Origin: a virus
Length of the DNA stretch: 64,000 nucleotides
Virus record (IMG/VR): IMGVR_UViG_3300027747_000967
Span: 55,999-119,998 of that record
Direction: 5' to 3' (one strand)
The notes below the pieces were generated by a model. The model did no database searches, was not told where the DNA came from, and saw only the letters and a program-made list of their open reading frames with translations. A program made the translations under genes and the position numbers. Every line of letters begins with the position of its first letter. Within the stretch, counting starts at the first letter, position 1. Shown in pieces: positions 23,144 to 56,002 of the stretch.

Positions 23144-24649
23144 CTATTCAACTCTAAGATTTCTTCTTTCTAATTCAGTTAAAATTAACTCCAATTGTTG
23201 TTTTTCCTTTAACATTATTTTTTTTGCATCTTGCCTTTCTTTAAACATTTTTTCAATTAAACTTGGCATAAATCCTTTAATATCGGTTCTGAAGAATTGT
23301 CCATTTGGCGTTAATGTTGCATTAACCAATCTAGAAGTCTCTACCTGTTTCATTAATAAACCGTCAAGTGATATACCATCAGATAAAATCTTACGCATTT
23401 CATCAGTATAGTTTTCAGGTTCAATTAAAGTTTCGGGACTTATATTGTATTGCATCATTAAACTTGGATATAGTGATGTTAAATCAAACGAAACAATCCA
23501 ATCATGTTTGCCTACTTGAACTTCTTTGACATATGCACCCTCAAACATACCGTCTTTTTCTTTATGTTCTTTTGGTGGAACAATGATTTTCTTATCCAAC
23601 AAATACGAATATGTGAGAGCGTCCCACATTCTTGTTTGTGCAAAGACATCTTCAAAGTTTGATTTTGTGTCGTATGCTAGTGTTACTGCTAATTCTAATA
23701 ATTTTAATTTTTCTTCAAGTTTTAGAATCAACATTACGTCTTTAATGTTATACTCAATAAATTTTTGGAAGTTTAGACGATATAACGCATGAAGATTGTC
23801 ATACTCATCATAAGATATTTTACCTTCACCCAACTCAACTTGAGCGATAGCATCCAAACGATAAGATTCTTGTGACTTACCGCCAGGAGCATACCATTTA
23901 TACAACTCAATATAATCTAATGATGCAAGACCCATCAAACTATATTCAATTAATGTTTTACCATTTACAAGTGTTTTTTTGTCACGAATATAATTCCATG
24001 GTGATAGTTTTTTTGCTTCATCTTCACCGAGAATCTTACGAAAACGATTTACAAGATAAGGTATATCGAAGAACTTTGTATTCCATCCTGTGATAATGTC
24101 TGGACACTTTTTAGACCACATTGTAAGAAACTTTTTACATAAAGTATATTCATCTTTACATTGTAAATAAATTTCATCACCTTGTGCATAGTATTCACCA
24201 CATCCAAACACTACGGTTTCGCCATTAAGATACTTTACACAAATAGCAGTAATAGGTTCATTGGCTTCGTATGGGTCAGGAAATCCATTCTCTGAACCTA
24301 CCTCAATATCTATTACGCCTATGAGAACTCTATCAAAATCATAATCAACTAATTTAGGATGCTGGTCAGCAATAAAGGCATACTCATAACGAGTTTGGCC
24401 ATACATTACAGGTGCACCAGGAAGTCCATCAAATTGTTTAATGTAATCTCTTGCTTCACGAATGTCTTGAAATTGTTTTCTATCTAATGGAAGGCCAGTG
24501 AGTGACTTATAAATTCCTTGTGGATTTTTTCTAGAAGGCAAAAAAAGAGAAGGCGCATAAGCAATCTTCTCTTTTACTCTCTTACCATTTTCTATTCCTC
24601 GGTAAAGAATATTATTACCGAGGACTTCTACGCTTGTATAAAAATTCAA
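23144..24649 (-). CDS. gp43: Family B DNA polymerase, N-terminal subunit (gp43A: exonuclease, motif A)
   Basis: IDIEV (Exo I), GWNTKFFDIPY (Exo II), YNIKDV (Exo III), SFDLTSLYP (motif A); ends in the fingers helix. Confidence 0.92.
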   Translation of the reverse strand: MNFYTSVEVLGNNILYRGIENGKRVKEKIAYAPSLFLPSRKNPQGIYKSLTGLPLDRKQFQDIREARDYIKQFDGLPGAPVMYGQTRYEYAFIADQHPKLVDYDFDRVLIGVIDIEVGSENGFPDPYEANEPITAICVKYLNGETVVFGCGEYYAQGDEIYLQCKDEYTLCKKFLTMWSKKCPDIITGWNTKFFDIPYLVNRFRKILGEDEAKKLSPWNYIRDKKTLVNGKTLIEYSLMGLASLDYIELYKWYAPGGKSQESYRLDAIAQVELGEGKISYDEYDNLHALYRLNFQKFIEYNIKDVMLILKLEEKLKLLELAVTLAYDTKSNFEDVFAQTRMWDALTYSYLLDKKIIVPPKEHKEKDGMFEGAYVKEVQVGKHDWIVSFDLTSLYPSLMMQYNISPETLIEPENYTDEMRKILSDGISLDGLLMKQVETSRLVNATLTPNGQFFRTDIKGFMPSLIEKMFKERQDAKKIMLKEKQQLELILTELERRNLRVE

Positions 24650-24977: not shown

Positions 24978-25052
24978 TGGAGCGGATAGTCAGATTTGAA
25001 CTGACGACATTTTCGTTGGCAACGAAACATTCTACCCCTGAATTATACCCGC
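24978..25052 (-). tRNA. tRNA-Gly(GCC)
   Basis: GCGGGTA/TATCCGC acceptor, anticodon loop TTGCCAA, TTCAAAT T-loop, TCCA end. Confidence 0.92.
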
Positions 25053-25060
25053 ATGATACT

Positions 25061-25089
25061 ATTATATAATACTTATGAACGATTGTAAA
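25061..25089 (-). promoter_or_regulatory. Sigma70-like promoter for tRNA-Gly
   Basis: TTTACA-17-TATAAT. Confidence 0.65.
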
Positions 25090-25129
25090 GCACTATATAA
25101 TAATATACCACATTAAAAAAGAGAACAAA

Positions 25130-25412: not shown

Positions 25413-25486
25413 TGGTAGCGGGACCTGGATTTGCACCAAGAACTAAGGCTTATGAGGCCATTGTGATACTCTTTCACTATCCCGCA
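25413..25486 (-). tRNA. tRNA-Met(CAT), initiator-like
   Basis: Loop CTCATAA; unpaired U1:U72; T-loop TGCAAAT; ACCA end. Confidence 0.8.
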
Positions 25487-25565: not shown

Positions 25566-25571
25566 ATATTC

Positions 25572-25715
25572 TTAATTTAATGTTATCTGCTCGATTTAGG
25601 GGTCTGGTGCTTCCATCCCATAGCGAATAAGCAGTTATCTCAGGACCTATTCCTCGCCAGTTAGACCCGAATAGTTAATACGTCTATTAACGATACCTTG
25701 ATAACACTAAATTAA
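25572..25715 (-). ncRNA. Structured RNA closed by a 16-bp stem
   Basis: TTAATTTAGTGTTATC/GATAACATTAAATTAA (G-U wobble only on the minus strand); internal GTTAATA/TATTAAC and GGGTCT/AGACCC helices. Confidence 0.65.
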
Positions 25716-25798
25716 AAATCCCGCTTACCGTTTGCGGGGTCATCATACCAGATTACTCGGTTCTATGACGGTCACAACTTGCTGTTTCTCAACAGTAG
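25711..25798 (-). ncRNA. Small promoter-proximal RNA with three hairpins
   Basis: CTGTT-GAGA-AACAG, GTCAT..ATGAC, CCCGC..GCGGG followed by ATTTTT. Confidence 0.45.
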
Positions 25799-25851: not shown

Positions 25852-25929
25852 TGGAGCAACGGGTCAGATTTGAACTGACGGCTTTACGGCTTTGCAGGCC
25901 GTTGCATTTGACCACTCTGCCACCGTTGC
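25852..25929 (-). tRNA. tRNA-Cys(GCA)
   Basis: GCAACGG/CCGTTGC acceptor, loop CTGCAAA, U73-CCA. Confidence 0.92.
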
Positions 25930-26046: not shown

Positions 26047-26122
26047 TGGTGCCCCATGTCCGACTCGAACAGACCACCTACTGATTACAAATCAGTTACT
26101 CTACCAGATGAGCTAATGGGGC
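26047..26122 (-). tRNA. tRNA-Thr(TGT)
   Basis: GCCCCAT/ATGGGGC acceptor, ACTGA-TTTGTAA-TCAGT anticodon arm, ACCA end. Confidence 0.93.
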
Positions 26123-26178
26123 AATTGTATCCTATTATATACAATAACTCAAATTAATGCACATAATAGGATACAATT
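26123..26178. repeat. Perfect 16-bp inverted repeat overlapping the 3' end of the small ORF
   Basis: aattgtatcctattat (26123-26138) / ataataggatacaatt (26163-26178). Confidence 0.9.
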
Positions 26179-26299
26179 TTTTAGATTTCTCTTTACGTCT
26201 TAAAGCTTTGTTACTTTTTTTATGACTACCCGCTTTACGAAACAATGCCAATTTGACAAGATAGTTTCGTTCTTTGGGAGTAGAATCTTTCTTTTTCAT
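26135..26299 (-). CDS. 54-aa basic protein, ArfA-like candidate
   Basis: AAGGAGAG SD; MKKKDSTPKERNYLVKLALFRKAGSHKKSNKALRRKEKSKKLYPIMCINLSYCI; below the ORF-track length cutoff. Confidence 0.65.
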   Translation of the reverse strand: MKKKDSTPKERNYLVKLALFRKAGSHKKSNKALRRKEKSKKLYPIMCINLSYCI

Positions 26300-26316
26300 C
26301 TTACTCTCCTTAAAAT

Positions 26317-26546
26317 TAGGACGGGCTACTTCCTGTCATAGAAGCCCCCGATTGGAATTCATCGTTAGCCATATTCCCGATATGTAATGGCAAACATTGT
26401 CAATTAATAAGGGTAATGTGACAACCCACTTGCGTAAGCAGAGCAAGATAACCCCCGATTTAAAGCTCGGCAACTTATGACAACTGATTGGCCGGCCCCA
26501 CTCATGGGATACCATTTAATCTAGGCTTTCTTCGTGCTATATCCTA
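26317..26546 (-). ncRNA. About 230-nt structured RNA or leader
   Basis: GC-enriched and ORF-free; TAGGAT/GTCCTA closing helix; AATCGGGGG twice; TGTCATA/TATGACA possible pseudoknot. Confidence 0.55.
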
Positions 26547-26557
26547 GAACCAAAACT

Positions 26558-26634
26558 TGGCGGTCTGTATCGGACTTGAACCGATGGTCTCCTCCGTGAC
26601 AGGGAGGCGATTTAACCAACTAATCTAACAAACC
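26558..26634 (-). tRNA. tRNA-Asp(GTC)
   Basis: CCTCC-CTGTCAC-GGAGG anticodon arm, G73-CCA. Confidence 0.93.
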
Positions 26635-26729
26635 ATATTGAAGCACACTATTGAGATTCCACTTTTCAAGTCAGGGTCCGGATGACCAAGCGCCGCTTCT
26701 CGCAGGTAGGGAATAATGTGCTTCAATAT
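26635..26729 (-). ncRNA. Stem-closed inter-tRNA RNA (18-bp stem)
   Basis: ATATTGAAGCACATTATT/AATAGTGTGCTTCAATAT (U-G wobble on the minus strand), exactly filling the Glu-Asp spacer. Confidence 0.6.
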
Positions 26730-26803
26730 GGCGCTCGGTACCAGATTCGAACTGGTGTGACCGCCGTGAAAGGGCGATATCCTAACCGCTAGATGAACCG
26801 AGC
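26729..26803 (-). tRNA. tRNA-Glu(TTC)
   Basis: GCTCGGT/ACCGAGC acceptor, loop CTTTCAC, G73-CCA. Confidence 0.93.
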
Positions 26804-28264: not shown

Positions 28265-28726
28265 CTATTCATCTTTGGCTTTTACGGTAATCTTTTTTAC
28301 CATATCCTGTGCTTTAATCATGTTTTCCAACCAAACTCTTAACATACCATTCATTAATTCAGCATCTTTAATTTCTACCGAATCAGCCAATGTAAATGTA
28401 CGTTCAAAGTTACGGCCAGCAATACCTTTGAAAATGTATGAACCGTCTGTTTCATTATCTTTTGATACTCCTTTGATAACCAATTTGTCGCCTTGTAAAG
28501 TAACTTCAATATCAGACTTAGCAAAACCAGCAACTGCCATTTCAATAACATACTTGTTTTCTTTTACTTGTTTGATATTGTATGGAGGATAACCAGGTGT
28601 TGCTTTGGCCATTTCGGTGTGCATAGATTGAAGTTTATCAATCACTTCATCAAAACCGATGGTGAAAGGGTCAAAAGATTTGTGGATTTTATCCCATTGT
28701 GGGAATAGAGTGAGGGTGCTTGTCAT
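28265..28726 (-). CDS. hsp20: Small heat shock protein (IbpA-like)
   Basis: IGFD, YPPYNI, IEMAVAGF, GIAGRNFERTF, NGML. Confidence 0.95.
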   Translation of the reverse strand: MTSTLTLFPQWDKIHKSFDPFTIGFDEVIDKLQSMHTEMAKATPGYPPYNIKQVKENKYVIEMAVAGFAKSDIEVTLQGDKLVIKGVSKDNETDGSYIFKGIAGRNFERTFTLADSVEIKDAELMNGMLRVWLENMIKAQDMVKKITVKAKDE

Positions 28727-55118: not shown

Positions 55119-56002
55119 TATATTTTACCTATTGGATTTATTTCTGTTGAAACCAAAACTGTATTTGCTTCACCTTTAATTGTAATATTATCATAACCTT
55201 CTTTTTTCGCTGGACTCTCCAACGGATCAAAATTACCAAGAGACCATAAAGCACCGCTGGTTGAACCTACAATATTATTATTAGCTATAAATTCACCAAA
55301 AATGTTGGTAACAGATAGTGTCTTTGAAGAAGGTATCCAACTTTGAACGGTAGCAGAAGCAAAAATATTATTTGCTGTACCATCTGATGATTGATATACA
55401 AATTCTTTAATATTGTAATTAATATTATTTCCTGAACTTATATGTAAATGTATCGTGTAAGCAGAATCAGTAACAACAGAATCAATATCTTCAATACCAG
55501 TAGAAATAACTTCTTGTGAAAATCTGTATTTCTCTAACTCTAATTCATAAAAATAAGGAACTTTTCTACCTAACATAAAGAAATCTTTTGTTTGATTGGT
55601 AAATTTAATTTCAAATAATTCACCTGTACCATTTAAAAAAGGTATGTAAATTAAATCACCTTCTCTTGGTCGTGTAAAACTATTTTGTGGAACTCTTTCT
55701 GAAAATGACCTTCTTGAAACAATTACATTGACATTATTTCTAATTTCTAAACCAAACTTAGAGAAGAATTCTTTTTCACCCAAATATTCCATTGAATTTG
55801 AAAGATACATTTCTAAAGGAAAAGCAGATTCAAATTTTTTGACAGGATCCTCACCTAATAATAAATCACGAGCTTGGTCGTTATCATTAGGTAGATAATA
55901 GGTGTCAAATCCTTGAACTTTGATAGATTCACATATTAAATCTTCAATGACTCGTTGTTCGGATAGACCGCCATAAGAATTAAAATAAAAATTTGTAGGC
56001 AT
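55118..56002 (-). CDS. gp14: Neck protein
   Basis: FSKFGLEIR, RPREGDLIY. Confidence 0.93.
   Translation of the reverse strand: MPTNFYFNSYGGLSEQRVIEDLICESIKVQGFDTYYLPNDNDQARDLLLGEDPVKKFESAFPLEMYLSNSMEYLGEKEFFSKFGLEIRNNVNVIVSRRSFSERVPQNSFTRPREGDLIYIPFLNGTGELFEIKFTNQTKDFFMLGRKVPYFYELELEKYRFSQEVISTGIEDIDSVVTDSAYTIHLHISSGNNINYNIKEFVYQSSDGTANNIFASATVQSWIPSSKTLSVTNIFGEFIANNNIVGSTSGALWSLGNFDPLESPAKKEGYDNITIKGEANTVLVSTEINPIGKI

Follow-up and report, generated by a model that had tools for sequence, protein, structure and literature searches.

The DNA analysed here, hereafter the window, is a stretch of 64,000 nucleotides (nt) from a 119,998-base virus record in IMG/VR (IMGVR_UViG_3300027747_000967, positions 55,999 to 119,998), whose completeness is estimated at 71%. 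Because a polymerase fragment is 43% identical to cyanophage polymerases, we assign the record, on sequence similarity, to a distant T4-like phage. Within the window, a 54-codon open reading frame (ORF), P0001, breaks up a minus-strand run of tRNA genes that all lie on the same strand (Table 1). A preliminary description had noted here an ORF with a strong Shine-Dalgarno sequence, a basic body and a hydrophobic tail, the tail codons and stop lying in a perfect 16-base-pair (bp) stem that ends at the 5′ end of tRNA-Thr. Both observations hold: the ORF and its ribosome site are as described, and the stem is borne out by its arms, by RNA folding and by the ARAGORN and Rfam placement of the tRNA. 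The same description had gone on to propose an ArfA-like ribosome-rescue factor made from an mRNA without a stop codon (a non-stop mRNA); of this interpretation, the non-stop architecture is supported and the kinship to ArfA is not.

Table 1. Features of the P0001 locus, in window coordinates.
Feature	Position	Strand	Description
P0001 small ORF	26135-26299	minus	ATG start, 54 amino acids; stop codon included in span
Shine-Dalgarno AAGGAG	26306-26311	minus	6 nt upstream of the ATG (26299-26297), read from the sequence
Conserved core, codons 1-41	26177-26299	minus	Basic; motif RN..V....FRKAG.H.K..KA.R; family alignments
Hairpin, 21+4 bp	26123-26178	minus	Unconserved tail codons and stop inside; flush with tRNA
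TAA stop	26135-26137	minus	In 3′ arm of hairpin; tRNA 5′ end 12 nt further
tRNA-Thr(UGU)	26047-26122	minus	ARAGORN; Rfam RF00005, 61.5 bits; 5′ end (RNase P site) abuts hairpin
tRNA-Asp(GUC)	26558-26634	minus	Next upstream tRNA, same strand, 258 nt before the ATG; ARAGORN and Rfam
tRNA-Glu	26729-26803	minus	ARAGORN, confirmed by Rfam
tRNA-Cys	25852-25929	minus	ARAGORN, confirmed by Rfam
tRNA-Met	25413-25486	minus	ARAGORN, confirmed by Rfam
tRNA-Gly	24978-25052	minus	ARAGORN, confirmed by Rfam

The hairpin is formed by arms at 26123-26147 and 26154-26178, with the perfect 16-bp core at 26123-26138 and 26163-26178. The predicted RNA fold has 21 contiguous pairs and four more (−30.6 kcal/mol, z = −7.87), and a fold as good was reached by none of the 200 dinucleotide shuffles. 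Roughly the last 14 codons of P0001 and its TAA lie within this structure, the foot of which is 2 nt past the end of the conserved core and the last base of which (26123) adjoins the first base of tRNA-Thr (26122). Covariation in the window's own clade is weak because the stem is nearly invariant there: of 20 pairs compared in 12 sequences, 4 differ on both sides. A stronger argument for the stem comes from sequence comparison between clades, where distinct stems stand at the same place.

We established whether P0001 is a gene from the variation among its relatives. A word-indexed protein search retrieved 104 clusters (90% identity) at E ≤ 0.01, and a profile of the first ~41 residues matched 460 representative clusters (50% identity) at E ≤ 1e-3 out of 1.84 billion representatives; for 50 of the 460, E was at or below 1e-10. 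Residues 11-34, which carry the motif given in Table 1, are almost invariant, and R11, G24, H26 and the arginine of KA.R (R34 in the window) are invariant across 53 sequences. Among 57 distinct 84-nt cores, the entropy at codon positions one, two and three was 0.51, 0.32 and 1.14, and codon differences comprised 15908 synonymous and 8568 non-synonymous changes. The five other frames held stops in 43-57 of the 57 core sequences. Because variation concentrates in third positions, synonymous changes are in excess and the other frames are closed, these comparisons indicate that P0001 is a real gene under purifying selection.

The family has no functional annotation. P0001 had no match at E ≤ 10 in Pfam, PHROGs, NCBIfam or the sequences of the PDB. 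Scans of 67 family members (38 + 29) gave stray weak Pfam matches to TPR_WDR35, YnfU, WKF, CP2 and TEA, and ten bacterial members gave weak NCBIfam matches to FliX and TrpC; we judged all of these meaningless. DUF7230, found in 39% of the members of the rank-15 cluster of an ESM Atlas search, was dropped because it is matched by no scanned family member. That search otherwise returned unnamed clusters only, and all named proteins of the family are called 'hypothetical protein'. In a collection of phage GenBank records, a DNA search matched tRNAs only, and a protein search returned three distant relatives, in Acidovorax phage ACP17, Synechococcus phage BUCT-ZZ01 and Variovorax phage V45v66. There is no tRNA near the small ORF in ACP17 and V45v66, and in BUCT-ZZ01 the ORF (2501-2647) runs into a tRNA-Lys at 2627. 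Judged from these sequence searches, uncultured phages, T4-like ones and others, carry the family in their tRNA arrays, and some members of the order Burkholderiales have it on the chromosome as a single copy. In the literature searched, we found no published description of the family or of a phage-borne ArfA-like factor, although the supplementary gene-neighbourhood lists of one study (PMC6514570) might already include members linked to rtcB (see below).

An AlphaFold2 model of the core has two short helices (residues 13-22 and 31-40) flanking the invariant AG.H loop, with a mean predicted local distance difference test score (pLDDT) of 72.6; this predicted shape is compatible with a rescue function and contributes little to the argument. 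In an RNA library available as assembled contigs (one run, share 0.07), a 53-nt piece covers part of tRNA-Thr. No piece of these assembled contigs lies over the ORF, which is uninformative on expression.

To see what follows the conserved core elsewhere, we located the tRNAs and stems in related phage loci, taking the best 80 of 120 confirmed loci, which after removal of duplicates represent 62 distinct loci including the window. Six of the 80 were missed by the motif regular expression; they were left out of the tabulation of stems and tRNAs and examined separately. One family alignment (A5) leaves out L088, which has an uncertain start, and L111 and L113-L116, which have the weakest E-values. 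The core is nearly invariant, and the C-terminal tails vary in both length and sequence, many being recognisable as translated tRNA genes. A tRNA directly follows the core in 27 of the 62 distinct loci. A contiguous stem of 15-26 bp starts between −3 and +8 nt from the core end in 33, and two loci, one of which runs off its contig, have neither pattern. As a control, stems of at least 12 bp occurred in 79 of 946 random start windows of the same loci. The stem seen in the window is retained in homologues, both within its own clade and, as a stem of at least 15 bp at the core end, in these 33 loci. Its sequence differs by clade and its interior ranges from ~10 to ~100 nt, while the 5′ foot stays at the same codon; the tRNA downstream varies among relatives (Thr, His, Cys, Met or Arg). 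In 29 of the 33 stem loci a stop precedes the tRNA, located in the loop (six loci), in the 3′ arm (18, the window included) or beyond the hairpin (five).

In 43 of the 80 loci, the frame has no stop ahead of the 5′ end of the next tRNA. In 39 of these (33, plus the six missed by the regular expression, which all run into tRNA-Lys), a tRNA-Lys(UUU) starts about 6 nt past the core, and the frame meets no stop until it is within the tRNA or past it; often that stop is a conserved TAG or TAA at tRNA positions 8-10. The frame reads through the entire tRNA in four of the six separately examined loci, three of which are identical in sequence. The remaining four of the 43 (L019, L020, L026 and L043) have a hairpin and then a tRNA, and here too the frame stays open up to the tRNA. 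RNase P is established to cut all pre-tRNAs at their 5′ end, so such a cut in the 43 loci would leave a messenger without a stop. Among 136 distant representatives (matches of the profile search with a tail of six or more residues), 35 tails contained a six-residue word of a translated tRNA, compared to one of 136 reversed tails.

Some variation around the small gene deserves mention in its own right. On another contig (L005, 1501-1682), an identical 54-residue ORF with the same hairpin lies upstream of tRNA-His instead of tRNA-Thr, so the unit of ORF and stem moves, or is shuffled, from one tRNA to another. Between tRNA-Asp and the ribosome site of P0001, the window has a GC-richer spacer of ~235 nt (26316-26552) without an Rfam match at E ≤ 1. 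A 114-nt piece (26314-26427) recurs with two differences in a contig of the RNA library, where unrelated sequence follows at the ORF side. Since the upstream tRNA ends just ~18-28 nt before the ATG in 22 of 74 related loci, this spacer element looks like an insertion. In L022, L027, L039 and L044, the stems of 20-26 bp that follow the small gene enclose interiors of ~70-100 nt, conserved between some contigs and containing a T-loop-like GGTTCGAAAC motif; these interiors may be small RNAs in their own right.

Bacterial copies were sought with a six-frame profile search in 201 genomes of one order, that of a copy-carrying Rhodocyclaceae metagenome-assembled genome. The family was found in 30 of the 201 genomes, one copy each, and named carriers include Chitinimonas, Andreprevotia, Massilia, Pseudoduganella and Undibacterium. 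This search was far more sensitive than a scan of genome contigs for an exact nine-residue pattern, which returned one locus. Folding of the 3′ regions revealed GC-rich hairpins with T-runs inside the bacterial ORFs, and it is the translation of these terminator T-runs that gives the bacterial tails their Phe/Pro-rich, hydrophobic character. By a simple scan for a GC hairpin and T-run, a terminator lies wholly inside the ORF, before the stop, in 11 of the 30 copies, against 24 among 325 frames of at least 100 codons taken from those loci as a control. ArfA (PF03889) was present in three of the same 201 genomes, none of which carries the small-gene family; at these numbers the mutual exclusion is not significant. 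Co-folding of a member from a Massilia genome with release factor 2 (RF2) of the same genome, both as alignments, scored 0.00; this was run with no controls and counts neither way.

Across phages and bacteria, the conserved coding part of the family thus ends where a processing signal begins, which may be a long stem or the 5′ end of a tRNA or, in bacteria, an intrinsic terminator. This pattern is strongly backed by the sequence comparisons, and it supports the arfA-style non-stop architecture that the preliminary description had proposed for the window.

Comparison of all frames in the bacterial loci against each other showed that 7 of the 30 loci share one neighbour cluster, which is RtcB (PF01139, E 1e-130). 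In these loci (L106, L092, L093, L104, L107, L109 and L110), the small gene lies directly behind rtcB; in L106, for example, rtcB (274-1482) and the small ORF (1486-1629) are on the same strand with a 3-nt gap. Five of the seven have a terminator inside the small ORF. The typical setting of rtcB2 is described as a two-gene operon with the rescue factor gene prfH (PMC9304027). PrfH is a release-factor homologue that, in the accounts of PMC9304027 and PMC6514570, frees ribosomes with a damaged decoding centre before RtcB2 reseals the rRNA. The bacterial small gene adjoins rtcB as prfH does, where we took the E. coli gene order from the operon name. The linked RtcB is known here at the level of PF01139 and may be of either the RtcB1 or the RtcB2 type. 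The two partners differ in that PrfH has its own GGQ hydrolase domain, whereas the small gene encodes a peptide of ~45 residues without one. A PrfH model found nothing above its cut-off in the five rtcB-linked genomes tested, the two sub-threshold matches being RF1 and RF2. RtcB was absent from the phage record, which is 71% complete, and from the 1.5-2.5 kb flanks of 84 phage loci (L001-L084).

Of the known systems, ArfA is the one to which the preliminary description had likened P0001. In sequence, that likeness is limited to an LFR-type tripeptide. At E ≤ 10, PF03889 matched nothing in P0001, in the six-frame translation of the phage record or in the 67 family members; on E. coli arfA it reaches 89.7 bits. 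Profile-profile comparison (hhalign) of the family with E. coli ArfA gave a probability of 0.19% over five columns, which align ALFRK with PLFRQ. Against a 13-sequence ArfA alignment, two family alignments gave 0.10% and 0.11%; the ArfA alignment is shallow, with ten enterobacterial sequences and three identical ones from the other order. The KGKGS block, invariant in the ArfA alignment, is absent from the small-gene family. The residue preceding the invariant H26 of the family varies (S, V, A, T, K or E), so there is no conserved counterpart to the Lys-His motif, for which a role in contacting 16S rRNA is described in ArfA (PMC6881298). We therefore rejected homology to ArfA, given the lack of a PF03889 match, hhalign probabilities of 0.1-0.2% and the missing KGKGS.

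The resemblance lies in design, and judged from the sequences the family is like ArfA and BrfA much as those two resemble each other without homology. In arfA, a stem-loop is reported to lead to premature termination or RNase III cutting, and a hydrophobic C-terminus destabilises the rare full-length protein (PMC8012679). ArfA of E. coli and Neisseria shares with the small-gene family a small basic protein, a stem-loop in the coding region ahead of the stop and an unconserved hydrophobic tail. By analogy, it may also share production on a non-stop messenger and hence repression by trans-translation (PMC8012679). The two differ in that, in many relatives of P0001, a tRNA 5′ end or a terminator, in place of an RNase III stem, would mark where the messenger ends, and in that the small-gene family is carried by phages and known here from its sequence. 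BrfA, the RF2-dependent factor of Bacillus subtilis, offers a parallel for the bacterial members: an intrinsic terminator in the coding region of brfA yields a non-stop mRNA whose product is degraded after tagging by transfer-messenger RNA (tmRNA) (PMC6881298); in-ORF terminators occur in 11 of the 30 bacterial members. BrfA also provides a precedent for independent origins, being non-homologous to ArfA yet working alike. Neither ArfA nor BrfA is reported to function well across species (PMC6881298). BrfA differs from the small-gene family according to its descriptions, which give a fold of N-terminal helices and a beta-strand on the ribosome (PMC6881298) and a range limited to Bacillus (PMC8012679); the family is set apart from BrfA by these descriptions and by having no Pfam or PDB match.

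A third known factor, ArfT of Francisella tularensis, has ~40 residues and works with RF1 or RF2. It illustrates that even a peptide of this size can recruit a release factor (PMC8012679, PMC6514570), and Burroughs and Aravind describe its family as a repeated charged helix of stress proteins. Members of the small-gene family are likewise about 40 residues long in their core, basic and predicted to be helical. They may differ from this repeat family, in that they match no Pfam family at E ≤ 10. We know of no report of ArfT being made from a non-stop mRNA. For the tRNA itself as a processing signal, mitochondrial tRNA punctuation offers a parallel: excision of the tRNA fixes where the coding RNA before it ends, and that RNA then lacks a complete stop until polyadenylation supplies it. 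In the loci where the frame runs into a tRNA, excision would similarly define a coding 3′ end without a stop. The parallel ends there, in that most tRNA-Lys loci leave two bases of a split codon, ending in T, to which an added A gives no stop.

The reading we favour is that P0001, which encodes a strongly basic peptide of ~41 residues, belongs to a new family, not homologous to ArfA or BrfA and built like them, whose messenger ends before a usable stop and whose product is probably a ribosome-rescue factor; judged from sequence and analogy, we consider this reading evenly balanced between right and wrong. Its parts differ in strength. The non-stop design is strongly backed by the sequence comparisons because one family implements it in three different ways, and the rescue function is a well-motivated inference by analogy. 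What follows is a proposed sequence of steps, from co-transcription through the cuts and control by tmRNA to binding of the ribosome and its rescue. The small gene would be transcribed with the tRNA array as one precursor, in which RNase P would cut at the 5′ end of tRNA-Thr (26122/26123). A double-strand-specific nuclease, for which RNase III is the obvious candidate, would cut the 25-bp stem whose foot lies just past codon 41; the stem has a size that RNase III cuts, and the cut would remove the TAA of the 3′ arm. Ribosomes would then translate up to the end of what is now a non-stop mRNA. As long as trans-translation has spare capacity, the peptide would be tagged by tmRNA and degraded, and once the system is saturated the peptide would accumulate. 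By analogy with ArfA and BrfA, a surviving basic peptide of ~41-47 residues may enter the empty mRNA channel of stalled ribosomes and help a release factor to act.

We also entertain, more tentatively and leaning slightly against it as a whole, a bolder version. Here the small-gene peptides would make up a fourth family of rescue peptides that depend on release factors, of independent origin and, as the first such family, phage-borne. Its non-stop mRNA would arise in a hitherto unrecognised manner, through RNase P excision of the adjoining tRNA, with an RNase III-type stem or an in-ORF terminator as interchangeable routes. Carried in tRNA arrays next to spare tRNAs, the peptide would free ribosomes for phages at times when broken mRNAs abound through nucleases of host or phage and tmRNA has reached saturation, and some Burkholderiales would use it beside RtcB in the place of PrfH.

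Several observations weigh against a rescue factor made from a non-stop messenger. The window and 28 other hairpin loci keep a stop before the tRNA, so that in the window, unless the stem is cut, termination would be normal and would give the 54-residue form. Three other spacers of the array, none with an ORF, are likewise closed by long stems that abut tRNA ends, so the hairpin may have a general part in processing or stabilisation, with the ORF running into it. The phage loci are related to each other, so that counts of loci are not counts of independent events, and the seven rtcB-linked copies, being mutually similar, probably form one clade. By our scans, 2 of the 62 phage loci and 19 of the 30 bacterial copies lack the tRNA, stem or in-ORF terminator pattern. 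In three of these bacterial copies a terminator occurs only after the stop and in 16 none was detected, and several copies without an in-ORF terminator end in ordinary hydrophilic tails. Finally, an ArfB-like third gene with an RF-1 domain is present in three of the five rtcB-linked genomes examined, so the family does not simply replace ArfB.

These points bear on four other explanations. The non-stop design may be real and the peptide something other than a release-factor-dependent rescue factor, such as a gauge of trans-translation, a helper in RNA repair with RtcB or tRNAs, or a ribosome modulator of the hibernation or takeover type. We consider this rather unlikely, though RNA repair would account equally well for the setting in phage tRNA arrays and for the rtcB adjacency in 7 of the 30 bacterial loci, library and profile-profile searches found no homology to any rescue factor, and the predicted model is merely two short basic helices. 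What speaks for rescue instead is that the only proteins known to us to be purposely made from non-stop messengers, ArfA and BrfA (PMC6881298, PMC8012679), are both rescue factors, and that so is PrfH, the usual operon partner of rtcB2 (PMC9304027); a repair role with RtcB in phages also fits poorly with its absence from the 84 flanks and the 71%-complete record.

Unlikely, too, is an ordinary small phage protein that terminates normally, with the hairpin as a generic spacer stalk or 3′ stabiliser of the array and the tRNA overlap as a product of genome compaction, translation of unprocessed precursor ending at the conserved TAG or TAA of tRNA positions 8-10. The TAA of the window, the many tRNA-Lys loci whose first in-frame stop lies at those positions and the ORF-less spacers of the same array, with their 19-20-nt arms of 84-95% complementarity, would all be expected on this account. 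It does not explain why the foot of the stem stays within −3 to +8 nt of the core end in 33 of 62 loci whatever its sequence or interior, why tails past the core end are unconstrained or why the frame reads through a whole tRNA in four loci; compaction of tRNA arrays, moreover, cannot explain the excess of in-ORF terminators in bacterial copies over their control (11/30 versus 24/325). A divergent true homologue of ArfA (PF03889) would share its size and charge, the LFR tripeptide aligned by hhalign, the hydrophobic tail and the hairpin in the coding region, but the three grounds given above for rejecting homology make this highly improbable. That P0001 is a chance ORF over a conserved RNA element, and no gene, we regard as negligible: the ORF is short, lies in an RNA-rich region and matches nothing in Pfam, PHROGs, NCBIfam or the PDB, but its strong third-position variation, a roughly 2:1 excess of synonymous over non-synonymous changes, the closed alternative frames and the conserved ribosome site are those of a coding sequence.

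The array and its surroundings hold further features. The three ORF-less spacers closed by stems flush with tRNA ends are 26633-26731 (20-nt arms, 95% complementarity), 25568-25719 (20-nt arms, 90%) and 25056-25106 (19-nt arms, 84%). Their stem sequences are unlike the one after the small gene, and they may act as RNase III-type processing stalks or else constitute small stable RNAs. In six related loci (L033 at ~1700-1772, L034, L039, L042, L021 and L035), a structured element of ~70 nt lies just upstream of tRNA-Gly(UCC), with outer stem strands GCGGTG and CACCGC and two inner hairpins; at gathering scores, Rfam matched only tRNAs in these loci. Elsewhere in the window, a 501-residue DNA polymerase ORF (23144-24649, minus) matches the N-terminal part of T4-type gp43, with the 43% identity to cyanophage polymerases given above, which suggests a split polymerase gene. 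A 153-residue ORF near the array (28265-28726, minus) looks like a small heat-shock protein of the alpha-crystallin type.

Back-up rescue factors are hard to find by homology, as ArfA, BrfA and ArfT share no sequence. The family described here points to a purely genomic signature by which they might be found, namely a conserved core that ends at a processing signal and is followed by an unconstrained tail. A 2021 review holds that further small rescue factors may await identification (PMC8012679), and ArfA is reported to be rare in Betaproteobacteria (37 of 1000; PMC11633108). If our favoured reading is correct, the family would provide a candidate rescue factor for Burkholderiales, where ArfA is likewise rare (3 of the 201 genomes here), and the first phage-borne case. 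It would also give tRNA 5′ processing a new role, as a switch that makes a messenger stop-less. More broadly, the locus suggests that tRNA arrays of phages may be modules for the maintenance of translation, beyond their use as aids to codon usage.

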